Part shown: positions 2,035-31,594 of the stretch, in pieces | How the letters are laid out: each line of letters opens with the position of its first letter | Position numbering within the stretch: the first letter of the stretch is position 1 | From: an uncultured Candidatus Saccharibacteria bacterium | GTDB taxonomy: Bacteria; Patescibacteriota; CAZHWT01 | Length of the DNA: 64,000 nucleotides | Assembly: GCA_964554805.1 (NCBI GenBank) | Contig: CAZKPX010000005.1 | Span: 15,935-79,934 of the forward strand | Direction: 5' to 3' | Made by a program: the position numbers and the translations under genes | The notes under the pieces: generated by a model | The model's input: only the letters and a program-made list of their open reading frames with translations | The model's database searches: none | What the model was told of the DNA's origin: nothing

Positions 2035-2183
2035 GGCGCCTTCGTCTAGTGGCCCAGGACATCTGCCCTTAATGGTGAAGATCAGGGGTTCGTAGGTAGG
2101 AAGAGATTATTGAAACATCGATTTCAATAATCGGCACTACCGTCACGAATCCGCCACAGGCGGAAGAGTTACCCCTAGGCACC
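2035..2183 (+). pseudogene. tRNA-Glu-like pseudo-tRNA with a ~91-nt structured insertion in the T-loop
   Basis: The first 57 nt are near-identical to the 5-prime part of the tRNA at 2216 (acceptor, D arm, T-stem 5-prime half). The anticodon stem has 2 mismatches (loop CCTTAAT). After GGGGTTCG comes an insert starting TAGGTAGG that contains two hairpins (ATTATTGAAA..TTTCAATAAT and CCGCCACAGGCGG). The segment ends GTTACCCCTAGGCACC. Confidence 0.4.
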
Positions 2184-2215
2184 TAGGGGATGAGAAAGCT
2201 GACAAATAAATACAT

Positions 2216-2292
2216 GGCGCCTTCGTCTAGTGGCCCAGGACATCACCCTCTCATGGTGAAGATCAGGGGTTCGAATCCCCTAGGCGTCACCA
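2216..2292 (+). tRNA. tRNA-Glu (anticodon CUC)
   Basis: Hand-folded cloverleaf: acceptor GGCGCCT/AGGCGTC, D-stem GTCT/GGAC, anticodon stem TCACC/GGTGA, loop CTCTCAT (U33, A37), T-arm AGGGG-TTCGAAT-CCCCT, discriminator A, encoded CCA. It is very close to the enterobacterial tRNA-Glu sequence. Confidence 0.85.
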
Positions 2293-3800
2293 TAAAGGAC
2301 ATAGCTTTTAGCTATGTCCTTTATTTGTTGCCACTGAGGGGAATATTGGGTGTTCTGCAGGCCTGGGTACATCCAACGTAGACCTGAGGGGAAAACAGAA
2401 CACAGTAAAATTTTTTTGACTCGCATATCTCCGTTAATGTACGTTTCTTGTATGTTAGATAGTTTATTTTCTACAAAGCCACAAAGGGCGTCTATATCGT
2501 ATGCTTTAAGCTGCTTTTGCTTGAGTAATTGATGAGCCTCGGCAATCTGCTTCTCAATAATTCCCATCTGTTCTTGAAAAACCTCGTTTGAGAATATTCC
2601 TTCAAGATTCTTCTCGACAATCTTTTGCCTTTTTCCTTTAAGGGTGTCTATTTGATGAGCTGCTTTCACTGCGCCGTACTCCACCTTTTTCATATTCTCG
2701 GTGTATTTTTTTCGCAGCATTTCAACGATTGCTCTGACCTGCTGCTTACTGAATGTTTCACCTTCCATAAGCTGTTCTAGCTCTTGGTTGGCCACTTTAG
2801 TTGGAATAGATGAAGGTAGGCCGCACCTCTTCGTACAATAATAGTAGCCATACTTTCTATTCTTGCCTTTGCTAAGCGATCCAGTCATAGCTTGTCCACA
2901 GATGCCACACTTCATTTGACGCCTTAATGGAAATTCTACATTATCATAGGTGCGAGCAACTCGCTCGCCATGGCTTGGACTACGCCCATTGAGCACATTT
3001 TGTACGGCGTAATAAACCTGCTCTGAGATCATAGCTTCATGTTGCCCCTTGGCCTCACCATAGTTTTTAGACTCTAGCATTCCACAATAGAACTTACTCC
3101 TAAATACTCCAGATAAGGTTTGTGGCCGCACTTTATAGCGTATTCCATTTTTGTGCACCCCAACCTGCTTACTATTTAGAAAATCACTTATAGATCGAAG
3201 GGTGTGAGCCCCAGATGCCATCATCTGCCAAGCCTCTCTCATAAATTCAAAAGATTCGGGGTCTTTGCTAGCATGACCCAGATGATTGATATATCCAAGC
3301 GGAACTCTGGTGATAGGTAGGCCTGCCATAAATCTAGCTTTCAACCCATTGGCCGTTCTCTCACTTCTAACATCATTATCTAGCTGCGCAAACCCAGCCA
3401 GCATAGTCTCTATGAGCTTCTCAGTTGGTGATACACCTGTAGGCTCCGTTGCAGAAACAATCTCAATCCCGATACGCTGCATTTGTGATCGAATAGATAA
3501 GTAATCCGCAGCTTGCCTCGCCATTCTGTCGATGCGATAAACAATGATAGTGCTAATGTCTTTTTTATTTTTGCGACAATAGTCCATCATTTCAAGAAGT
3601 TGTGGTCGCCCGTCAATATTCTTGGCAGAGCGCCCTTCTTCTTTAAAAACACGGTCGACCGCTATGCCTCGATTTCCAGCCTCTCTGATACAAATCTCTT
3701 CCTGTGTTGCTAGTGAGAAGTTAGCGACTTGCTCCTCGCTTGACACTCTTAAATAGAGGACTGCTTTTCCACTAGCTCGTTGCTCTCGTGCCTTTGACAT
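2280..3800 (-). CDS. large serine recombinase (site-specific integrase of the island)
   Basis: N-terminal resolvase catalytic motif AVLYLRVSSEEQ (catalytic Ser), a recombinase domain and a zinc-ribbon region CGICGQAMTG...YYYCTKRCG; 506 aa. The stop codon overlaps the 3-prime end of tRNA-Glu. Confidence 0.8.
   Translation of the reverse strand: MSKAREQRASGKAVLYLRVSSEEQVANFSLATQEEICIREAGNRGIAVDRVFKEEGRSAKNIDGRPQLLEMMDYCRKNKKDISTIIVYRIDRMARQAADYLSIRSQMQRIGIEIVSATEPTGVSPTEKLIETMLAGFAQLDNDVRSERTANGLKARFMAGLPITRVPLGYINHLGHASKDPESFEFMREAWQMMASGAHTLRSISDFLNSKQVGVHKNGIRYKVRPQTLSGVFRSKFYCGMLESKNYGEAKGQHEAMISEQVYYAVQNVLNGRSPSHGERVARTYDNVEFPLRRQMKCGICGQAMTGSLSKGKNRKYGYYYCTKRCGLPSSIPTKVANQELEQLMEGETFSKQQVRAIVEMLRKKYTENMKKVEYGAVKAAHQIDTLKGKRQKIVEKNLEGIFSNEVFQEQMGIIEKQIAEAHQLLKQKQLKAYDIDALCGFVENKLSNIQETYINGDMRVKKILLCSVFPSGLRWMYPGLQNTQYSPQWQQIKDIAKSYVLYGDA
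2294..2326 (+). terminator. intrinsic terminator hairpin after tRNA-Glu (AAAGGACATAGC-tttta-GCTATGTCCTTT + T-rich tail)
   Basis: Perfect 12-bp stem followed by ATTTGTTG. It lies inside the 3-prime end of the minus-strand recombinase ORF. Confidence 0.45.
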
Positions 3801-4030
3801 ACATCGCCCCTTTGCACAGCTTCCATATGTAATTCTTCAAATTCTTCAATCCAAGTGTCTAGTAGTTGGGAGATTGCAGCTTTTTGTTCAGTTAAAAACA
3901 TTTCTTCAGACGATTCAGCCTCTTTCTCGGCAGGAAAAAACTGAGGCAACTCTATTGTAATATTCTCAATAAGATTATCATTATTGTGATACATATGTAT
4001 CAATAGTAGCATATATGTATCACATGTCAA
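3749..4030 (-). CDS. small acidic hypothetical protein upstream of the recombinase (possible excision or directionality factor?)
   Basis: 93-aa ORF that is Glu-rich and overlaps the recombinase start. No recognisable motif. Confidence 0.2.
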   Translation of the reverse strand: MTCDTYMLLLIHMYHNNDNLIENITIELPQFFPAEKEAESSEEMFLTEQKAAISQLLDTWIEEFEELHMEAVQRGDVCQRHESNELVEKQSSI

Positions 4031-4146
4031 CTACTTAATTGAGTGTGGCTTGTTAGGCTGGGTAGCTATTTTAACGGAGTCTCCACCAGATGGTACCGCG
4101 TATGGCTACAATAATTCACGAAGAAATTTAGAGTGTCGTCCGCACA

Positions 4147-4944: not shown

Positions 4945-5310
4945 TCGATTTCATTCCCATATAAAGATACATGCCCATTTTTGCCTCCCAAATGAAATTC
5001 TATTTAGAATGATGTTTCTAGAGAACAGCATCCTGGCTGAGTATGTAGTGTTTCTACCATAAATAATACTCTATTATTGCCAGGTGATTACAAAACAGTT
5101 CAAAGATAGCTCTCATTCATAACGGACTAAAGCTTATTTTAAACCCGGAGCCCTGCTTGCCTCTTGTCTGACAAGCATCCTCTGTGATATATCTCTGAAT
5201 AATAAAATAATACATACGCGCGAAGATAATCTAATCTACCACTGCTGCCCAAGTACTTAAAAGTCTGGCGTGCGGTGGTTTTTTGTTTATGCGCGAAGGA
5301 GGTTTTCTTC

Positions 5311-5637
5311 ATGAAGTACGCATATCTTGGAGTATTGCTGATGGTTCTATCAGTTCTAGTCGCACCTCCGTTAGTCTTCGCTCAATCGGCTGATGTTGAG
5401 AAAGTTCAGTCTTTCGTTCAGTCAATTATCACTATCCTCGTCACCTTTGCTGGCCTCCTATCGGTGGCCTTTTTTGTATGGGGAGGAGTTGGCTATATTA
5501 CTTCAAGTGGTCAGCCTGAAGCACTGGATCGCTCAAAGCGAACCATTATCTATTCAGCTATTGGGCTCGTTGTTTGTCTGGCAGCCTTTGTTATCTCTAA
5601 CATTGTGACTGATGTGGCCAAAAATGCTTTCGGATAA
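5311..5637 (+). CDS. TrbC/VirB2-like conjugative pilin-like protein
   Basis: AAGGAGG sits 8 nt upstream of ATG 5311. The protein has a signal peptide (...PLVFAQS) and two TM helices around a conserved WGG..Y..S.GQPE segment. A paralog lies at 42771-43067. Confidence 0.5.
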   Translation: MKYAYLGVLLMVLSVLVAPPLVFAQSADVEKVQSFVQSIITILVTFAGLLSVAFFVWGGVGYITSSGQPEALDRSKRTIIYSAIGLVVCLAAFVISNIVTDVAKNAFG

Positions 5638-5654
5638 TAGATAACTAATAAGCC

Positions 5655-6833
5655 ATGAATCCAGACCTGCAACTATTCATTAGTCAGACCCTATCGTCGC
5701 TTGTTATGATAGCCGGCATTGCCTGCGCCTTTTTGCTAGTCAAAGCAGGATACATGTATATGACCTCAGTGGGGCAACCTGAGCAGTTGTATGAAGCAAA
5801 GAAAACAATTCGCAACACGCTTATAGGGCTAGTACTCGTATTTGCCTCAAGTGCATTGGTTAATATTGCGACAGACACTTGGCGAACTGCTCCCACTTCA
5901 CCTAACACGCAACAGATTGTCATTGAACAAGTAAAAGAATCTGAAGTGCCTGGGTCGTTATCTCAAATTATCATTGAGGCAACGATAGGATTTATTAAGC
6001 AGCTGATTGAATCTAGTCTGAAGCCGATGGTGGATGGCTTGTTTCAATTCCTGACAACCACACCCTTAATGGCGACGAATGGCACCATATTCCAATTCTG
6101 GGTTGTTATGCTCGGGATTACGAATGCCTTGTTTGTCTTGGTGGTAGCGCTACTAGGCTTGCATGTCATGAGCGCGTCGAGCTTAGGTCTAGAGGAAATG
6201 AGTTTGAGTCAGATGTTCCCCAAATTATTGTTGACCTTTATTGGAGCGAACAGCTCTATTTTTTTAATCGACTGGCTCATCAGTGCAACAAATACGTTTG
6301 CGGGCATACTGCTTAATGTCAATAACGGAGGGGATAGGGGTTGGATTTTGTCAGCGCTTGATCCGGTTAATCTGCTTGTTGGTGACAGTACTCTCTTCAC
6401 CCTCATAATGCTGCTTGTGCTCCTTCTTTTAGTGGTAGCTCTGCTCATTATGTATGTCGGTAGAATCATAACTCTCTCCTTTGGTGCCGCTATCTCACCA
6501 TTAGTCTGCCTGTTGCTCGCTCATCCCAAGACTCAAAACTTTGGTATGAATCTGGTTAAGTCCTATGTCATTACGACAACGATTGTCATTGTGCATGTGC
6601 TTATCCTGCAAATCTCCTCTAGTTTATTAACTAGCCTGTCCTCTCCTGAAAATCCGCTCATGAACGCGCTCCTTGGAATTGGCATTATGCTAACCCTGCT
6701 TAAGAGTTCGTCATTCTTGCTTAAGATGGCGCTTATTGCGGGAGGGGCGAGTGCCGTTAAAGCTATTGGTGGACAAATTATTAATGTGGTCAATTCACGG
6801 AAAAATACTACCGAACAAGCAAAAACAGCATAG
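5655..6833 (+). CDS. VirB6/TrbL-like polytopic T4SS membrane protein with an N-terminal pilin-like segment
   Basis: The N-terminal 70 aa resemble the pilin (TM ... SVGQPEQL ... TM). After that come at least 6 TM helices. Confidence 0.45.
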   Translation: MNPDLQLFISQTLSSLVMIAGIACAFLLVKAGYMYMTSVGQPEQLYEAKKTIRNTLIGLVLVFASSALVNIATDTWRTAPTSPNTQQIVIEQVKESEVPGSLSQIIIEATIGFIKQLIESSLKPMVDGLFQFLTTTPLMATNGTIFQFWVVMLGITNALFVLVVALLGLHVMSASSLGLEEMSLSQMFPKLLLTFIGANSSIFLIDWLISATNTFAGILLNVNNGGDRGWILSALDPVNLLVGDSTLFTLIMLLVLLLLVVALLIMYVGRIITLSFGAAISPLVCLLLAHPKTQNFGMNLVKSYVITTTIVIVHVLILQISSSLLTSLSSPENPLMNALLGIGIMLTLLKSSSFLLKMALIAGGASAVKAIGGQIINVVNSRKNTTEQAKTA

Positions 6834-6844
6834 GAGGAAAACCA

Positions 6845-7132
6845 ATGAAACAAACGACCATGCTCTCTCAAATAACAACTCAAGAAGATGTGCTGGTAGC
6901 TGGAATCACGATGAAGCAATTAGTTATTTGGTTTATCGGAGGCTTGGGTATTGCTGCAATCTATATCTTGCTGCCGGAGCCTATGAAGCTAAACGCTTAT
7001 AAAGGAGTGCCTATGTTACTAATTGGTTCAACGACTGCTCTTTCAACGGTAAAACATAAAGGAAGTATGCTGCTAGATATTTGGCTACTAAAAGCACAAT
7101 ACGCACTTAGACCTAAAATCACCACGGAGTAA
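6845..7132 (+). CDS. small T4SS membrane protein (VirB3/PrgI-like?)
   Basis: 95 aa with one or two TM helices; AGGAGGA precedes the ATG. Its position between the VirB6-like and VirB4 genes is typical of VirB3. Confidence 0.35.
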   Translation: MKQTTMLSQITTQEDVLVAGITMKQLVIWFIGGLGIAAIYILLPEPMKLNAYKGVPMLLIGSTTALSTVKHKGSMLLDIWLLKAQYALRPKITTE

Positions 7133-7136
7133 ACCT

Positions 7137-7703
7137 ATGGCGCAAACTATTATTGATCAATTTGGTATATCAGATATTGCAGATAATTTGTTGTACTTGC
7201 ATGATGGTTCGATTTGTTTGGTACTGGAAACATCGTCGGTTAATTTGGACTTAAAGAGTGAGGCGGAGTCTGATGTGATTATTACGCATTACCAGCAACT
7301 CTTGCAGTCGCTAACCATCCCTATCCAGGTTATTGTCAAAAGTAGACGAGTGGATATGAGTGACTATGAACAGGCGATTCAAAAGAGAATTTCTGAATCC
7401 TTAGATGTGGCACACCAGGGGCAACTTGAAGAATACCAAGACTTTCTATCTCAATTAGTTGTCGGCCGCAATATGTTGACCAGACGTTTTTTTATCGTTC
7501 TTAGTCTTAAATCTGGGCGGGAGTTGAACAAGCAGCAGGTCATTGAACAACTTCAAACCCAAAAAGAGTTGTTATTAAGGCAGCTTCAGAAGTTAGAGAT
7601 TAAGGCATCTCAACTATCTAACTTGGAGTTAGCTAATGTGTTTTATGAATCATTCCAGCCAGACAAAGTAGCGAGTCAGCCGCTACGGGAGGTGAACGCA
7701 TGA
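7137..7703 (+). CDS. VirB4/TrbE-family ATPase, N-terminal domain, encoded as a separate ORF
   Basis: N-terminal pattern typical of VirB4 (..LHDGSICLVLE...). The stop overlaps the next start (ATGA at 7700-7703). Confidence 0.5.
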   Translation: MAQTIIDQFGISDIADNLLYLHDGSICLVLETSSVNLDLKSEAESDVIITHYQQLLQSLTIPIQVIVKSRRVDMSDYEQAIQKRISESLDVAHQGQLEEYQDFLSQLVVGRNMLTRRFFIVLSLKSGRELNKQQVIEQLQTQKELLLRQLQKLEIKASQLSNLELANVFYESFQPDKVASQPLREVNA

Positions 7704-9430
7704 TCCAAGACCTTCTTGAGCAAGTTAGTTTGAAAGTGAAAGCTAGTCCTCATAAAACTGTTCGTGCGCTGCCGACGCCTAAACTTACATCACCGCTCGT
7801 TAAAGCAATTCTGCCAGCTGGAATTGCCGAACAACCTCGACATATAGATACGGGTAGTAGAGTAAGTCGGACTCTGTACATCTCGCAATATCCGCATATT
7901 GCTCATACTGGCTGGCTTAATCCATTGCTGCAATTTAATGCAGATATGGACATCTCCTTTCATATTGCGCCCTCGGCTCCCGATCAAGCGATTCACCAAT
8001 TAACCCGCAAGATAACTGAAATGGAGTCTACCAGGCGAAGCATGGTCAGACGCGGTCAGATTGTCGGTAGCGAGTTAACTGATCCGCTGGAATCAGCTAT
8101 GAGTCTTAAGACGAATATGCTGCGGGGCAAAGAAAAGTTGTTTGGTATTGGATTGTATATCACGCTTCACGCGGACACTTTGGAAGAATTAGACAGAACA
8201 ACTAGGCTTCTTGAAGGCACTCTTGGGAGAGGCCTGTTTTATTCAAAGTCGGCAGATTTTAGGCAGTTGGCTGGGTTTAAAACAACGCTGCCTATGGCCA
8301 AGGATTTACTGCTCAATCCTCACGACTTTGATTCGCTTGGGGCTTCAACGACATTCCCCTTCGCATCGAGCGAAGTTATAGATCCCGATGGTGTACTGTA
8401 CGGAATTAATGAGGCTAGTAATTCACTGGTTATTATTGACCGCTTTGCCTTGCCGAATGCTAATGCCATTACCATTGCTCAATCAGGGGCTGGTAAAAGC
8501 TACACTTCAAAAGTAGAGATACTCAGACAGTTGCTCTTTGGTACCCAAGTCTTTGTTATCGATCCAGAAGATGAGTACCAAGAGTTGGCAAAGAATGTTG
8601 GGGGTCAGATGATTGTTATTACTCCAACATCAGGTCAAAGCATTAACCCTTTTGCGCTACCCCTTGAGGCAACAAAACAGGAGCGAGCGCAACACATTGA
8701 AGACTGTATAAGTCTTTTATCTGTCATGGCAGGCAGTATGAATGTCGAGGAGCGATCTCGGGTTGATGGAGTGCTATCTAGGCTATTTATGGGTGGTAAA
8801 CAGGTGGTGCAGCTTAGCCATGTTGTAAAAGCACTGGTCAAAGAACGTCAGCTGGAATCACTGGTAAGCAGATTGGAGCCATATAGTACTGGCTCACTTA
8901 AAGGATTGTTCACTAGCAATAAGTCGCTGAGTTTAGAGACTCCGCTTTCAGTCTTTAGCTTAAAACATGTACCCAATACCTTAAAGCCGGTAGTGACTAT
9001 GATGATCGCCACTGCTCTGCAGCGGCAGATTATGGGACAGAAGAAAAAGCGATTGCTGCTTATTGATGAGGGTTGGTTGCTGCTTGAACATGAGGATTCG
9101 GCTAAGTTTATTGCGGGTCTTACCAGACGAGCTAGAAAGTATTACCTAGGCGTCCATATGATTACCCAGCAAGTTCAAGATTTTTTGGATAATCCGCATG
9201 GTCGATCAATTGCCTCACAATCGGCGCTACGAATCCTACTTAAGCAAGACACTACAACAATTGATCAAGTAGCTAAGGCGTTTAGACTAAGCGGATATGA
9301 AAAAGAAACGATTTTAACTTCTGACAAAGGCGAAGCCTTGATTATTGCAGGATCAAAGCATGTCAAAGTCAAAATTGTAGCCTCAAGTAAAGAGCATCCG
9401 CTACTTACAACTGACCCTCAGGAATTATGA
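7700..9430 (+). CDS. VirB4/TrbE-family T4SS ATPase (ATPase domain)
   Basis: Walker A IAQSGAGKSYTSK and Walker B LLLIDEGW; 576 aa. Confidence 0.75.
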   Translation: MIQDLLEQVSLKVKASPHKTVRALPTPKLTSPLVKAILPAGIAEQPRHIDTGSRVSRTLYISQYPHIAHTGWLNPLLQFNADMDISFHIAPSAPDQAIHQLTRKITEMESTRRSMVRRGQIVGSELTDPLESAMSLKTNMLRGKEKLFGIGLYITLHADTLEELDRTTRLLEGTLGRGLFYSKSADFRQLAGFKTTLPMAKDLLLNPHDFDSLGASTTFPFASSEVIDPDGVLYGINEASNSLVIIDRFALPNANAITIAQSGAGKSYTSKVEILRQLLFGTQVFVIDPEDEYQELAKNVGGQMIVITPTSGQSINPFALPLEATKQERAQHIEDCISLLSVMAGSMNVEERSRVDGVLSRLFMGGKQVVQLSHVVKALVKERQLESLVSRLEPYSTGSLKGLFTSNKSLSLETPLSVFSLKHVPNTLKPVVTMMIATALQRQIMGQKKKRLLLIDEGWLLLEHEDSAKFIAGLTRRARKYYLGVHMITQQVQDFLDNPHGRSIASQSALRILLKQDTTTIDQVAKAFRLSGYEKETILTSDKGEALIIAGSKHVKVKIVASSKEHPLLTTDPQEL

Positions 9431-10050
9431 ACCCAGCACTATTCTTGCTATTTACCAATGATAAAGCCTTGCGCTGGTGCTTAATGGCAGCAGTCATGAT
9501 TGCTTTAGTGCCGATGATGATTGTGTTGACTATAACTCAGGTCGGTGCGCAAGCAATTTCCGATGTACTACTACCACATGGAGAGAATACAAACCCAACC
9601 TCGATTCCAACAATATACGGTTTGATTGAGCTAGAAAATCCAGCGATTTGGCCAGTCGGTGGAGTTATTACACAGGAGTTCGGGACGCCCAACTTTCCAT
9701 TTCAAGTTGCACATACTGGCATCGATATTGCTAATCCCAATGGAGCTGCAGGAGACCCTGTTCGGGCAATCTTGCCTGGCAAGATTGTGTTTGCTGGCGA
9801 AGACTTCATAAGTCGCAATCTAGAGGTGCATGTTGATCATGGCCAAGGCTTGGTTAGTGTGTATGCACACTTATCCAAGATAACAGCCATTAAAGGGCAA
9901 GAGGTGCTGCAAGGTCAAAAGGTGGGCGAGGAAGGAAGATCTGGTTGGGCAACAGGAGTGCATTTGCACTTAGAACTCAGATTGTTTCATATACCAGTGA
10001 ACCCCAGAGTTTTAATCGGACAAGGTTCGCCGCCATTGGAGCTACCATGA
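9427..10050 (+). CDS. M23/LytM-family peptidoglycan metallopeptidase, membrane-anchored
   Basis: N-terminal TM helix, then HTGIDIA...GLVSVYAHL...GVHLHLELR, which corresponds to the HxxxD and HxH zinc motifs of M23 peptidases. ATGA coupling on both sides. Confidence 0.7.
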   Translation: MNPALFLLFTNDKALRWCLMAAVMIALVPMMIVLTITQVGAQAISDVLLPHGENTNPTSIPTIYGLIELENPAIWPVGGVITQEFGTPNFPFQVAHTGIDIANPNGAAGDPVRAILPGKIVFAGEDFISRNLEVHVDHGQGLVSVYAHLSKITAIKGQEVLQGQKVGEEGRSGWATGVHLHLELRLFHIPVNPRVLIGQGSPPLELP

Positions 10051-19870: not shown

Positions 19871-19875
19871 CGGTT

Positions 19876-24392: not shown

Positions 24393-24494
24393 ACCTTAGT
24401 GCACATAAGGTGCAAAGGCTGTGATGCACACCACAAGCACTCAATGCTAGCATGCTATACTTTACCCAAATCAGGCAAAGTTTTGATTACACTC

Positions 24495-24785
24495 ATGGCT
24501 GCCAAAGACTACGCTTTAACCTCTACTAGGATTCAGTTATTAAAACTGTTTGAACATAACAAGGAAGTTCTCGAACACGACTTGCTCTCGTATTTTTCAG
24601 AAAGGCGCCAAAAGCCTGCTCTATCTGAGATTTATCAGCTTGTTCGCGATGGCCTACTCGAAAGAAGCAACTGGGATCGCTCAGGTGTTTATGTAACAAA
24701 CAAGTACTACAAGATAACCCCCTATGGTCAAGAAGTTCTTGATACACTACTTTCGAAAGACCACATCATTAATCCATCTCTCTAG
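24495..24785 (+). CDS. small winged-helix (PadR-like?) regulator
   Basis: Pattern YQLVRDGLLER...YYKITPYGQEVL suggests a wHTH. The ORF track starts at 24399, only 6 nt from the divergent gene, so ATG 24495 is preferred. The intergenic region has TGCTATACT and TGCACA direct repeats. Confidence 0.3.
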   Translation: MAAKDYALTSTRIQLLKLFEHNKEVLEHDLLSYFSERRQKPALSEIYQLVRDGLLERSNWDRSGVYVTNKYYKITPYGQEVLDTLLSKDHIINPSL

Positions 24786-24816
24786 CTCCAAATCGATTTA
24801 ATCCAAGGAGGAGTCA

Positions 24817-25986
24817 TTGGAAGAGCAACCTACAATCCACCACCTTAAAGACATTTCTTATTATGAAGACCTTTACGACCGACTCACTGTAGATAGGTGC
24901 CGTAGAAGCGAGGCAACGGTTATAAAGGCATATAACAATGCTAAGCAGCGTGATCTCTCTGAAATAGACCCTGAGGTTGAAGACCCGCAGTTTGAACTCT
25001 ATAAAGTTTTTGGGCTTGCCCATTGGTTTGCCACTGAATGGGTAGCTGGAGAATGCTGGGAAGAGCGTCAAGCGACAATCAATGAGTGGATGGAGCGAGA
25101 CAAGATCAGAGATGATCAAATAGAGTCCGCTCAACTCAAACATACCCCTTTATGCAAACACTGCCATTCATCGAAGCTTCGAGTTATCTCTAAAGACTTA
25201 ATGCAAAGATTGGATGACAAAGAAGAGGCACTTTTCCTTTTCGAATGCCTTGATTGCCAAAAGCGAACCGCCATGTGGCACGACGGAAGACCATGGGAAA
25301 AGCGTAAGACGCCTTGTCCAGATTGTAATTCCGCCATGGAAGATTCGGATAGACGGGGAGGTGAAGAGTGCATTATCACAACCTATACTTGCCCTAGTTG
25401 CAAGCATAGTTATGAGGATGCTTTGGATTTAAAAGAAGAACCTAAAAAAGCGCCTGATCCAGATTATGAAAAGGATAAAGCTCGGTTCTGCTTTGATGAT
25501 AAGCGAGGTCAAGAGTTTCTTAAGGCCAAACAGCAGACAATACAGGCAACTGAGCTGATGCGCGAGATGAAAGAGCGCGTAGATAATAAAGACTTATATG
25601 ATAAAGTCGCCAACATTCAAAAGCCTACTGTCCATGAAGTAGAGCAAAGACTAATTAAAACTACTGAGGCCAAAGGATATGCCAAATTTAGTCTTGATAA
25701 CCCAACGGATGATCGCTACAGTGCTGCTGCATTTTCTGTCCGAGATGCTAAATCAGATAGGGGTAAAGATGAAAGTGTTAGCACTTTAGAAAAGCTCATA
25801 AAGCATGAGCTCAAGGATAGCAACTGGCGACTGATGAGTGATGGTGTTAATTATAGGGTAGGTATGCTTACAGGCAGGCTAAGAATCTACGAGGCAGAGG
25901 AAGACCTAATAAAGCTTGTCTCAGCGAGAGAGGGCAAGGATAATCGTGAAATACCTAAGAATAAGCAAAAAGATGCTGGGCAATGA
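24817..25986 (+). CDS. multi-zinc-ribbon protein (four CxxC pairs), highly charged, unknown function
   Basis: CKHC..., CLDC..., CPDC..., CPSC.... TTG start with AAGGAGGAG 5 nt upstream. Confidence 0.45.
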   Translation: MEEQPTIHHLKDISYYEDLYDRLTVDRCRRSEATVIKAYNNAKQRDLSEIDPEVEDPQFELYKVFGLAHWFATEWVAGECWEERQATINEWMERDKIRDDQIESAQLKHTPLCKHCHSSKLRVISKDLMQRLDDKEEALFLFECLDCQKRTAMWHDGRPWEKRKTPCPDCNSAMEDSDRRGGEECIITTYTCPSCKHSYEDALDLKEEPKKAPDPDYEKDKARFCFDDKRGQEFLKAKQQTIQATELMREMKERVDNKDLYDKVANIQKPTVHEVEQRLIKTTEAKGYAKFSLDNPTDDRYSAAAFSVRDAKSDRGKDESVSTLEKLIKHELKDSNWRLMSDGVNYRVGMLTGRLRIYEAEEDLIKLVSAREGKDNREIPKNKQKDAGQ

Positions 25987-26001
25987 TCGCGAAGACCGCC
26001 A

Positions 26002-26010
26002 TGGTATAAT
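26002..26010 (+). promoter_or_regulatory. extended -10 promoter (TGGTATAAT) for a leaderless transcript
   Basis: TGgTATAAT ends 7 nt before ATG 26017. The same CCATGGTATAAT module recurs at 26287. Confidence 0.4.
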
Positions 26011-26016
26011 TCGGCC

Positions 26017-26256
26017 ATGACAGCTATAACATGGACTGATGTCCACGACCCACACAACGAAATTCAAATAAGAGCTACTTTCCATATGTTGCAGGGAAAA
26101 CTTTCTCCCTCCGAAATCCAGGAGATGATTAATGAGAATGGGGTTCCCGGGATGGTCAAAGAGGTAAACCAGTACCTGAAAAAGAACCATATTCACTGGA
26201 CGTTAGTTTTACACCAAAATATTGTGGTTGAAGCATTCGCCTCGGAACTCGCCTAA
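26017..26256 (+). CDS. small hypothetical protein (leaderless)
   Basis: 79-aa ORF beginning at the predicted transcription start. Confidence 0.3.
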   Translation: MTAITWTDVHDPHNEIQIRATFHMLQGKLSPSEIQEMINENGVPGMVKEVNQYLKKNHIHWTLVLHQNIVVEAFASELA

Positions 26257-26289
26257 ATTTTCGGCGAACCCAGCCTTTTGGCTGCTCCA

Positions 26290-26298
26290 TGGTATAAT
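26290..26298 (+). promoter_or_regulatory. extended -10 promoter (TGGTATAAT) for the leaderless XRE regulator
   Basis: TGgTATAAT lies 7 nt upstream of ATG 26305. Confidence 0.4.
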
Positions 26299-26304
26299 CC
26301 CCTT

Positions 26305-26550
26305 ATGAAAAGCACTGAGCCAGAGCCACTGAAAACTGCAGAAAAATCTCTAGCCATTGAAGTTGGTCTAAAAATCATGACAGCTAGAAAAGCAAAGCGA
26401 CTGACTCAACAAGAATTAGCTGAGGCTTCTGGGGTTGATAGAACATATATCAGCCGTATCGAATTAGGGGCAATAAATGCCTCTTTAGATAAATACGTCG
26501 CAATTCTGCGTGCCCTTGGACTTAAGTTCGAAGATGTTATTGAAATTTAA
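26305..26550 (+). CDS. XRE-family (Cro/CI-type) HTH transcriptional regulator, leaderless
   Basis: LTQQELAEASGVDRTYISRIELG is a canonical HTH_XRE motif. The ORF-track start at 26278 would include the -10 element, so ATG 26305 is preferred. Confidence 0.6.
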   Translation: MKSTEPEPLKTAEKSLAIEVGLKIMTARKAKRLTQQELAEASGVDRTYISRIELGAINASLDKYVAILRALGLKFEDVIEI

Positions 26551-26620
26551 GCCTAGCCTAGCTCTAGGAACTTAATCCTTAAATCTTTGATCCATTCAAA
26601 CAAGTGTTCTGCTAACATTG

Positions 26621-26672
26621 TGTCAGGGTCACCAAAAATACCTCGCAACTTTTGTTACGGGGTATTTTTGTT
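26621..26672 (+). terminator. tRNA-3-prime-end remnant (GGGTCACCA) plus intrinsic terminator (AAAAATACCTCGCAAC-tttt-GTTACGGGGTATTTTT)
   Basis: A-tract, stem, T-tract hairpin. A near-identical module lies at 31488-31533. Confidence 0.5.
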
Positions 26673-26715
26673 GTTGCTTCCGGGGAGTCTCACCGCGACA
26701 AAGTCGTCAGGTTCG

Positions 26716-26811
26716 TAGGTAGGAAGAGATTATTGAAACAGCGATTTCAATAATCGGTACTACCGTTACGGATCCGCCAGCCGGCGGAGAAGTTCCCCCT
26801 AGGCATCACCA
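26716..26811 (+). repeat. ~95-nt structured repeat unit ending in a tRNA-Glu 3-prime-like core (CCCCCTAGGCATCACCA); candidate right-end att repeat of island 1
   Basis: About 85% identical to 2093-2183. It carries the same two hairpins and is preceded by a tRNA-like TCAGGTTCG. Confidence 0.5.
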
Positions 26812-27068
26812 TATTAACCCCGAGTTTTTAGGTCGGTGTATTTTATTACTACTTCCCTGAGCCTCATTGCGACAAAGTCGCCCAAGACAGAGCTAGTGAT
26901 TCGCTTAATAGAGGAGAGCAACTCGTCTAGATATCACATCGAAACGACATAACAATTCACCGCCTCCTTTTTATCTGTTATTGTAGGAGAATGTAATATT
27001 CAGTAGGTCAAACCACATCTACGTTTCCTTATTCCTTAGTTTTCAATTAAAATAACTGTACTTCTTAT

Positions 27069-28217
27069 ATGAATATAGCTCTAGGCTCTACTTCAAATTA
27101 TAAATATGAAATCTTAAAACACAAGCTATATGGGAACTTAGCTACTAGTGAAATAACCCGTGTTTTTATTGCAGATAAATCTGTAGATCTTGTGTTTAAT
27201 AAGGATACCTCTGAGCTGGCTACGAAACATGTAAAGCAGGTGCTAGACGCTCAGCCAGATACTGATCTGGCTGTAGTGCTGGAAGCGGGGCTAGAGCTAG
27301 TTGGTAAGATGTATATGCTTGTATGCGTAGCTGCCTTCTGGGACGGCAAGACGCTTTCAATAGGTAAAAGTAAAGGTATACCTTTACCATTTGTGGTGTC
27401 TGAGAGCGTTAAACAGGGTAGCAAATATGAACAAGAAATCACTAAATTCCAGAAAATAGCACTTGCCGATGAAAAAGATAGAATAAAAGAGCTTATTACT
27501 ATGGAGAGCTCATACAATACAGCTATAGAAAACGCATTGCCCGTCTTAAAGAGCTTGTATGGTAATTCGCTGATTGCAAAAGCACTAGTCTCATCGTCTC
27601 CGTATTGGATTAGTAAGGTATCTCTGAAACTAACTTCATTGCTGGCCTTTGTTTATATTACCTATGGTTCTTTTGTGACGCTTGGTTCAGGAGTGCGCTC
27701 AGATTTTGCATTTCAGTTAAAAAATTTGCAAATACTACTTCCCGCTATATTGCTCTTATGGCTAATTGGAGTTATATCGTCATTTAAAATACCAAGCCTG
27801 CAAGCCAACTCGGTAATCTGGAAAAGTTTTCAAATAGTTTTAACAGCCGCAATTCTTCAGCTTGTATTTGGAATTCTGTTTCTTTGGTTTTATTGGCAGT
27901 ATGATACTAATTCAGTGATCGACCATTTGTTGAAACTTTGGCTGGACAACTGGCTTATCATGGGGATAGTGGCTGTTTTGATTTGTGTCGCAGCAGTAGG
28001 ATACTTCTGCTTCAAGCTATGGAAGAATAGGGTTATCTCGCTAATTACTGCGATGAGTCTTATAGTTGGATGGGCTTTACTCCTGCTTAATATCTGGACT
28101 CTTATGTACGCTAGACTTCCCGTGCTTCTCATTACCCCCTTTGCTATATTTGGTCTTTCATTATGCTTCGGCACATGGAGTTTTTCAAAAGCTGTTGAAT
28201 CTAAATTTGTTAAATAG
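27069..28217 (+). CDS. membrane protein (N-terminal ~190-aa soluble domain, then 6-7 TM helices)
   Basis: 382-aa ORF with a hydrophobic C-terminal half. Confidence 0.45.
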   Translation: MNIALGSTSNYKYEILKHKLYGNLATSEITRVFIADKSVDLVFNKDTSELATKHVKQVLDAQPDTDLAVVLEAGLELVGKMYMLVCVAAFWDGKTLSIGKSKGIPLPFVVSESVKQGSKYEQEITKFQKIALADEKDRIKELITMESSYNTAIENALPVLKSLYGNSLIAKALVSSSPYWISKVSLKLTSLLAFVYITYGSFVTLGSGVRSDFAFQLKNLQILLPAILLLWLIGVISSFKIPSLQANSVIWKSFQIVLTAAILQLVFGILFLWFYWQYDTNSVIDHLLKLWLDNWLIMGIVAVLICVAAVGYFCFKLWKNRVISLITAMSLIVGWALLLLNIWTLMYARLPVLLITPFAIFGLSLCFGTWSFSKAVESKFVK

Positions 28218-28259
28218 ATTGTTTTGTATATTTGATTTGACTTAAAGTAAAAAGCAAAA

Positions 28260-28292
28260 GCACCCCCAACGCCATCTTTGTGATGGGGGTGC
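28260..28292. terminator. bidirectional terminator hairpin GCACCCCCA-(14 nt)-TGGGGGTGC flanked by A- and T-rich runs
   Basis: It lies between convergent genes ending at 28217 (+) and 28312 (-). Confidence 0.4.
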
Positions 28293-28311
28293 AATGATTT
28301 GGTGCGTTGGA

Positions 28312-28644
28312 TCAGCAGTAGGCGAACCACGTATCCTGGAAGTGCACAGTGGGTATGTTGTACGTCTTCGTTGTCGTCGATGGTGGCGAGTTGGGCAACT
28401 TCGTGTAGGTGATGTTCAATTGCCCTTCCCACCAAAGGTGGCTTGGATTGACATAGACGCCACCAACACTCGGGCCGCTCCATGTCGTCCACACGCCATT
28501 CTGGTTGTACCCAGCGTAGTAGACAGTTCCAGTGATGTAATGACACTCGAACCGGACATGTTGTCCGTTAACTCCAGCTTCAACGGGCGAAGCGGGAGTT
28601 GCGAATGAAAACGACGCCATCATGAGAATGGCGACGAGTAACAT
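28312..28644 (-). CDS. small secreted protein, candidate bacteriocin or toxin
   Basis: Signal peptide MLLVAILMMASFSFATPASPVEA. The mature part is about 88 aa, rich in Trp/Tyr/Gly/Thr, with Cys near the N terminus and at the C terminus. It is divergent from the MacB/FtsX-type ABC transporter. An alternative upstream start is at 28722. Confidence 0.4.
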   Translation of the reverse strand: MLLVAILMMASFSFATPASPVEAGVNGQHVRFECHYITGTVYYAGYNQNGVWTTWSGPSVGGVYVNPSHLWWEGQLNITYTKLPNSPPSTTTKTYNIPTVHFQDTWFAYC

Positions 28645-28804
28645 CGGGAGCTTTTTCAACTGACTCTCTCTTTCTGTTCCAGATGGCTGAAGAATAATAG
28701 CATAGCTAACTGAAAGAAGCAAGCGATTTTCTAGTCTTTTAATTTAGAGTAATTCAAAGTCTTAGGTGTTTGCCAAACAAAAATTGAAAGGATAAAATGG
28801 TTGT

Positions 28805-29524
28805 ATGCAAGAGAAACCAGTTGTTGAAGTAGTTAGTCTAACCAAAACCTATGGTAGCTCTATGAAGCAAATGATAGCATTGGACTCGGCAACGTTTAAA
28901 ATCTACTCAGAAACAAGAGTTGCAGTAATGGGTTTAAGTGGTTCCGGTAAGAGTACTATGCTGCAGCTTGTTGGTGGACTAGACAAGCCAACTAAGGGGT
29001 CAGTGTCCGTAAATGGGAGTAAAATAGAACTGTTAAATGATGCCCAGCTCTCCATGTATCGCAATCAGTCAGTCGGATTTATTTTTCAATCATATAATTT
29101 GCAGTCGCATTTAAATGCGCAAGAGAACGCAGCCTTGCCCTTAATTTTATCGGGGATTAAACCTAATAAGGCAAATGAGCATGCGTTGATATATTTAGAA
29201 AAGTTAAATGTAGCTCAGTGTGCAAAAAAATTTCCTTCCCAAATGTCTGGTGGAGAAATGCAAAGAGTGGCAATTGCTCGAGCACTGGTAAAAGAGCCTT
29301 CAATTATACTTGCGGATGAGCCGACAGCTAACTTGGACAAGGAAAATGCAGAAAATGTGCTTACAATATTGCTTAATATGCAGTTGCACAAACAGGCAAT
29401 TATTATTGTGACTCATGATGAAAGAATTGCAAGTCGTTTTGATAGGCTTATTGAGCTGGATCATGGTAAAGTTGTTAAAGATGTTGAGCTAAAGAATCAT
29501 CAAGTACGAAATGTAACAGGTTAA
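28805..29524 (+). CDS. ABC transporter ATP-binding protein (MacB/LolD-type)
   Basis: Walker A GLSGSGKST, signature LSGGEMQRVAIARAL, Walker B ILADEPTANLD. Confidence 0.8.
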   Translation: MQEKPVVEVVSLTKTYGSSMKQMIALDSATFKIYSETRVAVMGLSGSGKSTMLQLVGGLDKPTKGSVSVNGSKIELLNDAQLSMYRNQSVGFIFQSYNLQSHLNAQENAALPLILSGIKPNKANEHALIYLEKLNVAQCAKKFPSQMSGGEMQRVAIARALVKEPSIILADEPTANLDKENAENVLTILLNMQLHKQAIIIVTHDERIASRFDRLIELDHGKVVKDVELKNHQVRNVTG

Positions 29525-29528
29525 AAGT

Positions 29529-31357
29529 ATGTCAATGCCCCTGGGATATGCAGTTAAAACAAGCTTAAGAAAATATGATCGAAACAGATGGCGCACATTT
29601 TTTGGTATTGCACCATTCATGATATTAGTTATTATTCTTGTTATTTTTACAAATTTAGCATCAAGTTTTGAGAGGTATATACAAGATAAAATCGTCAGCC
29701 GCGTAGAGCTAAAAGAAGAACAAATAAGGCTTACTAAAAATGGCGGCGAACTCATAACGGATCCGCTTTCAAATAGGCCAGATCCTCAAGCATATACAGT
29801 TCAGGATCTAGGCAAGGTGAGGGAAAATGAACATGTAGTAAATGCGGAGATACAGCAGTCACTGCCACCATTACGAGTGGTGACTACAGAATTAGTTAGT
29901 GCCAAAGAATTGCACATACAAAATATTAAACTCGCATCGAAGGGTAGTACTAAGTTATATGCTCAGGAAGCATTTGAGTATGTTACTGGACAGCCTATAC
30001 CAATTATACTCAGCAAGAATGTATTTAATTATGCATACATAGACATGGGCGGCGCTACCAACATCACGCTCTCGCAAGAACAATTTAATAATGAGAAAAT
30101 AAGACGAGAACAATATCCACTAAAGAACGTATTTCTGAAGGATGATTACGATAAAGGCAAGCTAATCGGAAAAACATTCTCGGTTAAAATTGGTGGATTC
30201 TCAAATATTGCCCAGTTAACTATATCAACTAATGATGATTCAAATACGAGTTCTTTTAAGCTTCGTACAAAAAAAATATTGACGAAGAGATGCAGGCAAG
30301 AGTTTCTGCTATTGCACCATACTGGGACTATACTTTTTTGGATAAAGGAATAGAAGCAAAGTTTATAATTGTTGGATTTAATGACGATTTGGATAATTCT
30401 GCCAATTTTATTCCAGTTAATGCTGGAACTGAGATCTTCGAGCGTATTTATAATCGACAGTTAGATGCTAGAACCTCCAAGGTGCTTCCTGAAGCAAGTT
30501 ATGGACGGATGTTTGGAGGTATGCGAGTAGCCTCAGACAGAACCCTGGTTGCGTATGGCGCTGAGAATAGCCATAACGAAGTCGTTCCTCCAGTTAATGA
30601 ATTCATAACTTCTCAGGTCGCAAATAATTTCTTGCTCGATAGCGCTGGAATATATATTCCAGGTTGGGTATATTCATCAAGCGAAATAGAAGATATTAAA
30701 ATTCCAAGTGAGGTATCTGACCTTAAAATAAGCCCAGAGTCATTTGCAATATCGGATATTATAGCTATTCTAGATGACTCATCTAATAGGCTAATCGCTA
30801 TTAATAATTTAATAGATTCTGGATTTCCTGAAATCCAGAATTCGAGTAGCATAGTTGATCAAGCTAGAATCGCCAAGGAGGGGCTGGTTAAGTTCACCAA
30901 TGTCATTGCTATTATTTTAACTTCTATCTCCGTAATGTTCCTTATTTCACTGGTATGGCGATATGTGTCAGACTCCCATAGGGAAATTGGTATTTATCGC
31001 GCTCTAGGAGCTCGAAAAACAGATATTGGTTTTCTTTATATTATTTATACATCAAGCCAAGTAATTATCGGCACTCTCTTGGGCTTGTTGGTTGGCTTAG
31101 CATTTATTCGACCGCTGGCTAATCATCTCGTAAATATTATTTATGATTCAAATATTATTCCTAGTTTAAGCCCGGAGGGGGCTTACTTGAATGGCTTACA
31201 ACTTACACTAGTAAATTCTGATTTATACTTTATTGATTACTCTAAAATAGCATTGTACGTCGCTATCTTAATCATGTCAGGTCTTTTGGCTTCGCTTATT
31301 CCAGCATGGCGTGCTGCAAATATTAGCCCAGTCGAAGCAATTCGTAACTCAGAGTAG
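29529..31357 (+). CDS. FtsX/MacB-type ABC permease, apparently frameshifted (two overlapping ORFs 29529-30353 and 30290-31357)
   Basis: N-terminal TM1 plus an extracytoplasmic domain in the first ORF. The second ORF continues the extracytoplasmic domain and ends with 3 TM helices showing an FtsX-type pattern. The reading frame changes within 30290-30353. Confidence 0.5.
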
Positions 31358-31461
31358 AAAACATTAGCGTCTTCTGCGATCAGAAGTCTATAAGACTAAC
31401 TGTTTGATAAGGTTTCTCTATTGTACTGAAGCTTACGCCTAGTATCATTCAACCAGACTAA

Positions 31462-31533
31462 ATGGGGTTCGAACAAATTTGAGTAAGTGTCACCAAAAAG
31501 ACCTCGTAACTTTTGTTACGGGGTCTTTTTGTT
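31462..31533 (+). terminator. tRNA-Glu 3-prime-end remnant (GGGGTTCGAA...GTGTCACCA) plus intrinsic terminator (AAAAAGACCTCGTAAC-tttt-GTTACGGGGTCTTTTT)
   Basis: Near-perfect stem (one U.G pair) with flanking A and T tracts. It resembles the terminator of a displaced tRNA. Confidence 0.5.
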
Positions 31534-31556
31534 GCCGCTTCCGGGGGATTCTCACC

Positions 31557-31594
31557 TCCGCCAGCTGGCGAAGTAGCTACCCCTAGGCGTCACC
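31557..31594 (+). repeat. truncated copy of the att-like repeat (TCCGCCAGCTGGCG...ACCCCTAGGCGTCACC); candidate right boundary of island 2
   Basis: 16 of 17 positions match the 3-prime end of tRNA-Glu at 2276-2292. It has the palindromic core shared with units at 2150 and 26773. Confidence 0.45.

Follow-up and report, generated by a model that had tools for sequence, protein, structure and literature searches.

An integrative conjugative element of a large serine recombinase at tRNA-Glu in a Candidatus Saccharibacteria genome, with a probable array of junction relics beside it

The locus described here raises the question of how the DNA to the right of a tRNA-Glu gene was put in place: in one insertion or in several, and by what kind of recombination. 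The window analysed is a stretch of 64,000 nucleotides from an uncultured Candidatus Saccharibacteria bacterium (GenBank assembly GCA_964554805.1, contig CAZKPX010000005.1, positions 15,935 to 79,934 of the forward strand), and positions are counted from its first letter unless another locus is named. A first-pass annotation, made by a model from the letters of the window, had read the 2.3-31.6 kb region as two islands accreted in tandem by serial integration into tRNA-Glu(CUC), i.e. segment 1 and segment 2, each closed by a copy of the tRNA 3' core with a terminator module in front of it. Our analysis supports the reading of segment 1 (2.29-26.6 kb) as an integrative conjugative element (ICE) integrated at the 3' end of tRNA-Glu, and its nature as an island is secure. 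As for the whole region, the best explanation, which we consider probable, is an ICE inserted by a large serine recombinase (LSR) together with an array of relics.

The target gene is intact: ARAGORN and Rfam both place tRNA-Glu(CUC), the sole tRNA call in the window, at 2216-2292 on the forward strand, ending where it had been annotated, and the gene provides the B arm of attL. The recombinase at this end, correctly named in the first-pass annotation, is a protein of 506 aa (2280-3800, reverse strand) with matches to the Pfam families Resolvase (PF00239, 1.6e-29), Recombinase (PF07508, 8.8e-09) and Zn_ribbon_recom (PF13408, 8.1e-06), i.e. it has both the catalytic domain and the recombinase/zinc-ribbon domains of a large serine recombinase. 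In an 18-homolog alignment, Y16, R18, V19 and S20 of the Y-x-R-V-S catalytic motif are invariant, and so are C298, C301, C322 and C326 of the zinc ribbon. The gene does not read out of the tRNA end, as had been thought, but converges on the tRNA, whose last 13 nt it covers, and has its stop codon inside the tRNA 3' end. Against NCBIfam the protein gave XisF/Ccr-like matches below cut-off, those to CcrA/B/C being weak (1e-16 to 1e-18). The phage-integrase (tyrosine) domain was absent from the scanned main ORFs of 2.3-31.6 kb, where the only recombinase is of the serine type.

That segment 1 is an ICE is seen directly from its content: VirB4, a coupling protein and mating-pore genes stand in one block, a recombinase of its own marks one end of the element, att repeats are present at both ends, and a sister of the element is found in another genome at another site. 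The type IV secretion system (T4SS) claimed for this segment occupies 5275-12440 on the forward strand (Pfam, and gene calls on the matching Logan contig). By Pfam it comprises two pilins (5275-5637 and 5655-6833), a PrgI-like protein (6845-7132), a TraC-like protein (7137-7703), VirB4 (7700-9430), an M23 hydrolase (9427-10050) and the coupling protein (9945-12440), all on the forward strand. It is followed on the same strand by a Replic_Relax protein (12531-13250; PF13814, 1.7e-14), a candidate relaxase or initiator. This Pfam match is the only sign of a relaxase in segment 1, and neither NCBIfam nor PHROG gave one.

The other genome (GCA_964536215.1, locus L009) carries a sister ICE with a syntenic T4SS block, in which the LSR is 63% identical and the pilins, VirB4 and coupling protein show 54-72% amino-acid identity. 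It is inserted at tRNA-Lys(CUU) with other flanking genes, and a related element at a different tRNA in different surroundings is direct evidence of this element type moving.

The orientation of the LSR gene is a family trait. At E<=1e-10 the recombinase has 926 homologs, the best of them mostly 44-48% identical and one 63%, and the names on these relatives include Saccharibacteria and Woykebacteria; a scan of genome contigs for relatives returned one LSR only, 25% identical. In every genomic context that was fetched the LSR ORF runs antisense into a tRNA gene, namely tRNA-Lys(CUU) in L009, tRNA-Gly(GCC) in L012, tRNA-Lys(UUU) in L013 and tRNA-Gln(CUG) in L004, where the LSR is 25% identical. 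When these four are combined with 44 metagenome loci (all 48 with at least 120 nt of downstream DNA), an antisense tRNA is observed at the LSR 3' end in 36, with more than 12 tRNA identities, Glu being the commonest. The C-terminal tails of the proteins tell the same story: 16 of the 18 aligned tails have G-x-R-T in constant register behind a conserved SIFPSG..W.YPGYSNT.ISP.YQ motif, and these residues are what the T-arm TCGAACC encodes when read antisense. The 3' coding end of the LSR thus includes the P' arm of the att site. The LSRs would belong to a large clade, widespread in metagenome-assembled genomes of the candidate phyla radiation (CPR) type, for which attB would consist of the tRNA T-arm and the acceptor 3' strand.

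Conjugation genes are also recurrent neighbours of the family LSRs. A coupling protein is found in 19 loci, Replic_Relax in 14, where it lies beside both the coupling protein and the LSR, and VirB4 within 10 kb in four. Ten loci have the LSR, coupling protein and Replic_Relax with VirB4 not within 10 kb (L013, L017, L021, L025, L028, L036, L039, L041, L043 and L044), and these look mobilisable rather than self-transmissible. Another recurrent feature is a small ORF over the LSR start codon. In the window it encodes 93 aa without a family match (3749-4030, reverse strand), and its position is kept in L009 (9786-10052), L012 (9718-9999) and L013 (9814-10017), with lengths of 67-93 aa and 40% identity between the window and L009 proteins; we speculate that it may be a candidate recombination directionality factor or regulator.

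Where within the tRNA does recombination take place? An answer comes from the junction of one pair of loci, L014 and L047, which can be read directly. The two have 2,029 bp in common at 92% identity, comprising the LSR and ~500 bp upstream, and the identity stops exactly 7 nt into tRNA-Glu(UUC), at GCTACCA; past this point L014 continues as tRNA and L047 as an unrelated arm, GAGCCGTGCGAACATCGACTACGAGCC. L012 and L031 form a second pair that resembles them. In L004 the 3' end of tRNA-Gln recurs as a 16-nt direct repeat 5 kb off on the LSR side, starting right after the T-loop, and in L063 the order after tRNA-Lys(UUU) is GC-rich filler of 128 nt, a 22-nt repeat of the 3' end of this tRNA and the LSR element, with a 13-nt tRNA-end fragment at the far end at 11.2 kb (L063 coordinates 11466-11689 and 415-427). 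Taken together, these loci indicate that recombination occurs in the last few tRNA bases and that tandem scars exist elsewhere in the family. A crossover at TTCG in the T-loop was also considered and rejected for the family, the L014/L047 junction being only 7 nt. Two side observations may be added: L014 9497-11521 and L047 9485-11512 represent one LSR module in two junction states (tRNA and non-tRNA arm) and are unrelated upstream of it, on the element side, which suggests modular exchange of the integration module; and L063 is a miniature tandem scar at another tRNA.

A second regularity concerns the T-loop sequence GGTTCGAA, which ends 17 nt before the 3' end in the tRNA and 22 nt before it in P-type arms. 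Our motif-shift analysis covered left half-sites. The best match (6-7 of 8) is observed exactly at +5 in the non-tRNA arms of L047, L031 and L015 and in the L004 attR, and at +4 in the L022 arm; it is absent from the L028 arm and the L063 attR. The +5 placement therefore holds for the window site at 31465-31495 described below and for 4 of the 7 independent non-tRNA arms, a fifth arm being at +4; a score of 6/8 or better at any single offset has a chance of 0.004. The shift matches the published model of serine integrases, in which the motif bound by the zinc-ribbon domain (ZD) occupies bp 16-24 in attP half-sites and 11-19 in attB (PMC3783163). Placing the T-loop at 11-19 makes TC the central dinucleotide of GCG-TC-ACCA, at 2287-2288 in the window, in agreement with the 7-nt L014/L047 junction, and from the sequence we infer that the crossover falls on this dinucleotide, within GTCACCA (2286-2292). 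In the mechanism that we propose, GGTTCGAA would serve as the ZD motif, strand exchange near the discriminator and CCA would leave the tRNA intact, and element-borne P arms would carry a T-loop mimic 5 bp further out. The LSR gene would then stand at the tRNA-proximal end, convergent with the tRNA, and its last codons would be encoded across the recombination junction.

We now turn to the far end of the ICE. The repeats that suggested an array in the first place are directly observed and hold up in a scan of the window. Exact matches of the 15-nt core CCCCTAGGCRTCACC are found only at 2277, 26796 and 31580, the sole other match being an unrelated one with 2 mismatches (chance expectation 0.07), and the cores at 26796 and 31580 agree with the tRNA 3' end in 15/16 and 15/15 nt, respectively. 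The hairpin ACCTCGYAAC-TTTT-GTTACGGGGT is confined to 26640 and 31501 (chance expectation 0), its stems differ between the copies by one compensatory change (T-A vs G-C), and the two modules around it are 75% identical across 115 nt (26571-26685 vs 31432-31546). Core and hairpin module thus recur far above chance, and the repeats are real. The annotation had pointed out that core repeats at many unrelated loci would make them generic repetitive extragenic palindromic (REP) elements; in the window both core and module occur solely at island junctions. The hairpin directly 3' of the genuine tRNA, AAAGGACATAGC-TTTT-GCTATGTCCTTT (2293-2326, forward strand), is the P' arm within the LSR 3' coding end and differs in sequence from the repeated module; the corresponding stretch of the sister ICE at tRNA-Lys matches its region with 80% identity across 154 nt.

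The modules themselves, M at 26.57-26.81 kb and R at 31.43-31.59 kb, have the same parts in the same order: a P-type half-site with its fusion point at GTC|ACCA, the ACCA itself, a hairpin, ~25 nt of homology to the LSR 3' coding end (GTTGYYGCTTCCGGGG.A.TCTCACC) and a tRNA-Glu-like 3' piece. They align with each other and share the layout of tRNA 3' half, hairpin and LSR 3' end seen in the window and in L009, so what had been called a terminator module is better read as a relic att junction with an LSR gene stub; the hairpins do resemble intrinsic terminators. We propose that both modules would be relics of earlier LSR-element junctions. The first part of module R (forward strand) is the half-site X6'' (31465-31495), in which GGGTTCGAA is followed by 22 nt ending in GTCACCA. 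The nonamer, at 31465-31473, matches the tRNA T-arm 9/9 and lies 5 nt further from the end, the GTCACCA being at 31489-31495. A half-site scan with the tRNA's own 9-mer at shifted offsets beside an exact GTCACCA gave this one perfect match in the window, the probability of an exact 9-mer at a single offset being ~4e-6; likewise GGTTCGAA is matched 8/8 at +5 (31466-31473). The crossover of this site is predicted at TC, 31490-31491. The rest of the module (31496-31594) consists of the hairpin (31496-31530), the LSR 3'-end relic (31531-31556) and the tRNA-Glu-like 3' piece c3 (31557-31594), which has its core CCCCTAGGCGTCACC at 31580-31594.

The first part of module M (forward strand) is X4'' (26604-26634), made up of GTGTTCTGC and a further 22 nt up to and including GTCACCA. 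This is a decayed P-type half-site, which can be aligned gap-free with 31465-31495 and has a T-loop motif of 4/8 at +5; we regard it as the candidate attR of a 24.3-kb ICE. A terminator-like hairpin (26635-26669) and the LSR 3' coding-end relic (26670-26694) follow. The difference between M and R is a clean 78-nt indel: a block with tRNA positions ~44-57 and a hairpin element called Z' (26695-26772) has no counterpart in R and precedes c2 (26773-26811, the whole stretch being 26695-26811), with the core CCCCTAGGCATCACCA at 26796-26811. By the serine-integrase criterion, the sequence suggests 26604-26634 and 31465-31495 as the best right-end half-sites, 100-175 nt to the left of the cores chosen earlier. 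Since the crossover of the L014/L047 pair falls within the last 7 nt of the tRNA, the 15-17-nt cores are not simply displaced tRNA ends. Three candidate explanations of c2 and c3 are displaced tRNA pieces, captured DNA and REP-invaded sequence. Both contain, in common with the upstream copy X1 described next, a 20-nt insert holding the palindrome CCGCCAGCTGGCGG, and the shifted T-loop motif was not found in either. As P-type arms, c0, c2 and c3 (GGCGGA at +5/+6) were rejected with only 4/8, and a reading of the mid and right elements as acceptor/T-arm minihelices was rejected because their 5' part fits the LSR 3' coding end better. The hairpin module and T-loop insert had 0 matches in viral contigs, and among 93 loci the Z' insert and the M and R modules matched only Logan contigs of the same organism.

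A further, degenerate tRNA-Glu-like copy, X1 (2035-2183, forward strand), is absent from the first-pass account, although the interval given there starts with it. It consists of a tRNA 5' part (2035-2092), the 54-nt hairpin block Z' (2093-2146, after GGGGTTCG), GAATCC and then the 20-nt insert with the palindrome CCGCCACAGGCGG, and finally CCCCTAGGC-ACC (2172-2183), i.e. the core with a 2-nt deletion. Over the first 61 nt it has 90% identity to the tRNA; five changes, all in the anticodon arm, fall within the first 58 nt, and its 3' block is 85-90% identical to 26710-26811 (85% for 2087-2175 vs 26710-26798). ARAGORN made no call on X1 and Rfam gave no match at E<=1. The most economical reading of this sequence is that X1 may be a further integration scar, left by an element that would have entered an upstream copy of tRNA-Glu and later been lost through a deletion from the tRNA T-loop to a GGTTCG in its right end. 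It may just as well be that the right end of the ICE took up part of an X1-like gene. One of the CT-rich 25-nt repeats of the window sits just upstream of X1; these repeats (CTTCTCACTTCTCCTTCT-like, intergenic, 5' of genes) are at 965-1002, 1985-2009 and 54315-54339.

Between the two modules lies segment 2 (26812-31431), four forward-strand genes without a recombinase, and no mobility genes were found in its scanned ORFs. The first gene encodes a 382-aa protein (27069-28217) with an NTPase_I-T-like N-terminus by profile and a C-terminal half that looks hydrophobic and membrane-protein-like by eye from the translation; among 5.8 billion proteins its only homolog at E<=1e-5 is itself. The bacteriocin-like gene that had been announced for segment 2 was not found. 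The ABC transporter is present as an ABC ATPase (28805-29524) and an FtsX permease (30290-31357), with a 274-aa protein of unknown family between them. The composition of segment 2 is that of the ICE: its tetranucleotide correlation is 0.895 with the ICE vs 0.621 with the backbone, and GC is 0.39 in segment 2, 0.41 in the ICE and 0.46 in the backbone, the shift to backbone values falling at ~31.6-32.2 kb. Paralogous junction relics flank segment 2 and a perfect P-type site ends it. With its ICE-like composition and its lack of mobility genes it is probably the remnant of an earlier LSR element that lost its recombinase, or captured cargo.

Repeated integration at the tRNA-Glu site is therefore the most economical history, since there is an ICE at the tRNA end, att-like repeats follow to the right and the composition of segment 2 is ICE-like. 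The region contains at least three directly repeated att pieces and a recombinase-less internal segment, as expected of tandem accretion, and pieces resembling the tRNA 3' end form far-end direct repeats at 26796 and 31580, as in classical islands. The history is supported in outline and not proven, because the data include no close relative and no empty site; the order and number of events are what we infer from the layout. Serial integration into one tRNA gene, as originally proposed, stands in this outline as plausible and supported in part, and what has to be corrected is its mechanism, the crossover lying in the last bases of the tRNA and the right ends being P-type half-sites, as well as several of its gene labels.

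Several points weigh against this explanation. The ICE's Replic_Relax protein is not an established relaxase. The putative attR at 26604-26634 is decayed, with a score of just 4/8, and c2 and c3 lack the shifted T-loop motif and carry a palindrome that also occurs at four unrelated loci. Modules M and R are paralogous as whole units and, judging by their alignment, could stem from one duplication rather than two integrations. Segment 2 has no mobility gene and begins with an orphan, and the +5 rule rests on few independent sites, 2 of 7 being without the motif. Finally, Logan short-read contigs from three samples (L001 ending at 2116, a 24,652-bp island contig covering 2088-26739, and right-hand contigs starting from 26711) all break at a 31-mer common to 2087-2117 and 26710-26740, and such a graph fits an integrated element and an excised element plus empty site alike.

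Among the rival explanations, the one that survives best takes the region as a single composite element of 29.2 kb (2288-31490), reaching from the tRNA attL to 31465-31495, with the module at 26.6-26.8 kb as an internal fossil and segment 2 as ordinary cargo. The only strong P-type site of the window, 9/9 at +5 with an exact 7-nt core, is indeed the one at 31465-31495; the composition of segment 2 equals that of the ICE, and the 26.6-kb copy is decayed (4/8). The internal module, however, keeps the full junction architecture, which arises most easily from an earlier tandem insertion, and so this explanation, to which we give some weight though a good deal less than an even chance, differs from an ICE with junction relics mainly in what moves today and not in the history. 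For the unit moving today there are three candidates, which all start at 2289 and reach to 26629 (24.3 kb), 26806 (24.5 kb) or 31490 (29.2 kb). Segment 2 itself could now move only in company with the ICE, within a 29.2-kb unit whose right end would be the perfect P-type site at 31490. Excision would join GTCACCA-TAAAGGACATAGC to the P-type arm. For the ICE moving by itself the predicted empty site is CCCCTAGGCGTCACCAAAAATACCTCGCAAC and the circle junction CATTGTGTCAGGGTCACCATAAAGGACATAGC; excision of 29.2 kb would give CCCCTAGGCGTCACCAAAAAGACCTCGTAAC and TTTGAGTAAGTGTCACCATAAAGGACATAGC, respectively.

The literal two-island model, in which the right ends are displaced tRNA 3' ends and the crossover is inside the 15-17-nt core, is in our view unlikely. 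It would predict the empty site CCCCTAGGCGTCACCATATTAACCCCGAG and the circle junction GTTCCCCCTAGGCATCACCATAAAGGACATAGC. The cores are 15/16 and 15/15 identical and confined to these sites, and L004 has a similar 16-nt direct repeat that starts right after the T-loop. On the other hand, the L014/L047 junction types have just 7 nt in common, c2 and c3 are without the shifted T-loop motif expected of P arms, and they have derived insertions in common with X1 (the 20-nt palindrome insert and, in c2, Z'), which makes them copies of an already degenerate gene.

It is more doubtful still, and in our judgement improbable, that only the ICE is foreign and that segment 2 is native chromosome bordered by generic terminator or REP-type repeats. 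The absence of mobility genes in segment 2, the four unrelated copies of CCGCCAGCTGGCGG and the terminator-like hairpins would be in keeping with it, but the other 32 kb of the window have neither module nor core at an unrelated site, a mimic of the tRNA T-arm and LSR 3'-end homology are part of the modules, and the composition of segment 2 is as far from the backbone as that of the ICE. Finally, we give hardly any credit to X1 being a functional tRNA-like gene with an intron-like T-loop insertion and 26710-26811 its paralog, for while its fold is more stable than shuffled sequence (z = -4.2), its acceptor-like ends are kept, the tRNA follows 30 nt downstream and there is a promoter-like site at 1904-1932, X1 receives no tRNA call, the anticodon stem is broken with C in place of U33, the acceptor 3' strand has a 2-nt deletion and the insert was not found elsewhere in viral contigs or related loci. 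An intron-bearing tRNA would be expected to match a tRNA model with the insert left aside and to have an intact anticodon arm, and a reading of the insert-bearing copy as a T-loop-intron tRNA or structured RNA was likewise rejected, there being no tRNA call and no relatives.

Besides the conjugation genes, segment 1 carries cargo and regulators on both strands (13962-26550, by profile matches). These are an HNH protein (13962-14774), a RadC-like JAB protein (15012-15578, reverse strand), a type IIG restriction-modification (R-M) enzyme of 1356 aa (15800-19870; PADLOC REase_MTase_IIG, 4.3e-281), a methyltransferase (19876-21534), the candidate defence pair PDC-M43A/B (21556-23147), ORFs of unknown family (23190-25986) and, at the far end, an HTH_3 protein (26278-26550). 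The defence-like cargo noted at first sight is thus confirmed by profiles, and the nearest thing to the supposed anti-restriction-like gene is the RadC-like protein; no anti-restriction family appeared in the profile searches. PDC-M43A/B, i.e. a 196-aa protein and a histidine-kinase-like ATPase, comes directly after the R-M enzyme and the separate methyltransferase, and together these genes form a small defence island inside the ICE.

The flanks are of a different kind. On the left there are DeoC-like and DUF5671 genes and, further left on contig L001, Rpe, RpiB and glutaredoxin; on the right DUF402, amylase, inositol phosphatase and FBP aldolase. The housekeeping content noted after 31.6 kb is borne out by these metabolic genes and by the composition shift. 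The Pfam content and the names on the homologs speak for an uncultured organism of CPR/Patescibacteria type, and a cyanobacterial origin, considered at first, was rejected in view of this content and of the LSR relatives. Every protein looked up belonged to a 90%-identity cluster of just 1-2 members. A search for an empty site via the DeoC-like flank protein (1010-1756) returned no homolog at E<=1e-30, and this lineage is very sparsely sampled.

A few repeats and genes elsewhere in the window deserve a mention. The 14-nt palindrome CCGCCAGCTGGCGG inside c2 and c3 (26774 and 31558, with a variant at 2152) recurs at 53985-53998, 54072-54085, 54225-54238 and 59044-59057, in intergenic DNA near giant LamG genes; in all there are 12 strand-hits vs 0.14 expected, and at 53974 and 59033 it is part of a longer hairpin, GTCATTGC.ATCCGCC...GGCGGAGC.GCAATCC. 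The palindrome has the appearance of a REP-type repeat belonging to this genome. The giant genes are two ORFs (54406-59004, 1532 aa, and 58866-63725, 1619 aa) that form a ~4.6-kb tandem duplication with 70-83% identity (repeat families D1-D10); in the first, which is the one scanned against Pfam, six or more Laminin_G_3 (concanavalin-like) domains were recognised, together with an end resembling Toxin_R_bind_N. The 12-mer GCGACAAAGTCG, a small hairpin (GCGAC-AAA-GTCGC-like), flanks the 26.8-kb core at 26695-26706 and 26869-26880.

Taken alone, this locus is an ordinary, if well-preserved, island array, and the wider interest lies in the pattern at the level of the family. Our literature search returned no account of serine recombinases at tRNA genes in Patescibacteria. 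We speculate that a deep and very large clade of Patescibacteria/CPR serine integrases uses tRNA genes as attB, a joint reading whose chances we put slightly below even. The universally conserved T-loop would be read as the outer motif by the zinc-ribbon domain, the cut would fall in the last few bases so that the tRNA survives, and retargeting among at least 12 tRNA species would proceed via inner acceptor/T-stem contacts only. The attP arms would retain their T-loop mimic at a shift of 5 bp, the C-terminus of the integrase would vary with the integration state, its stop codon lying across the junction, and the integrases would carry coupling-protein/Replic_Relax modules and sometimes full T4SS clusters. 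If this is true, at least part of the 'relaxase-less' T4SS repertoire of Patescibacteria would be genuinely conjugative, and a widespread tRNA-preserving clade of serine integrases would extend the textbook picture, in which tRNA 3' ends are targets of tyrosine integrases. The att logic, i.e. a conserved T-loop motif combined with a variable inner sequence, could also serve integrase engineering.

It is useful to compare the locus with known systems. In the staphylococcal cassette chromosomes SCC and SCCmec, the Ccr large serine recombinases insert at the 3' end of rlmH (orfX) and the gene is kept active; short direct repeats of the integration site are found, and tandem arrays occur that include recombinase-less remnants. 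The present locus has in common with SCC the insertion by an LSR at the 3' end of a conserved gene without inactivation, the tandem array and the recombinase-less remnant. Unlike in SCC, the target is a tRNA and not rlmH, there is a single LSR and the element is conjugative, and the LSR is not a Ccr ortholog, its NCBIfam matches being far below the Ccr cut-offs. A second parallel is the accretion of an ICE and a cis-mobilisable element (CIME) in ICESt1/ICESt3 of Streptococcus thermophilus, with a tyrosine integrase at the fda locus. There is a similarity in as much as a recombinase-less segment lies between att-type sites in tandem with an ICE and could be mobilised in cis; the recombinase and the site are different, a serine recombinase and a tRNA here as opposed to a tyrosine integrase and fda.

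Target sites at tRNA 3' ends are those of tyrosine recombinases (PMC5704250, PMC4383910), while serine-recombinase elements usually disrupt protein-coding genes and leave very short repeats of about 2 bp (PMC5704250). Like Islander-type tyrosine-integrase islands (PMC4383910), the locus has an intact tRNA and an integrase at one end, tRNA repeats at the far end and serial occupation. The defining feature of those islands, the tyrosine integrase, is replaced by a serine-type recombinase; their crossover is in the anticodon loop or T-loop, as opposed to the last ~7 nt here, and the far-end arm here is a spaced T-loop mimic and not a simple displaced fragment. The spacing of the mimic agrees with the model of the Listeria innocua/A118 integrase (PMC3783163), where attB half-sites have the same motif as attP half-sites but 5 bp nearer to the centre; the binding of the ZD to the T-loop is suggested here by the position of the motif.

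As regards the T4SS, the passages on Patescibacteria in two recent papers describe loci that are mostly without a relaxase and argue for a non-conjugative, epibiosis-linked role (PMC12102498, PMC12857230), and these passages mention neither recombinases nor tRNA sites. The cluster described here resembles the loci in those passages in its VirB2-like pilins (PF18895), VirB4, hydrolase, coupling protein and MPF-FATA type. It bears on the question raised in the relevant part of PMC12102498, as a complete cluster stands beside Replic_Relax in a bounded and evidently transposed element. In contrast to the loci reported in those passages, the cluster is inside an LSR-bounded element with Replic_Relax, and a sister copy is present at another tRNA.

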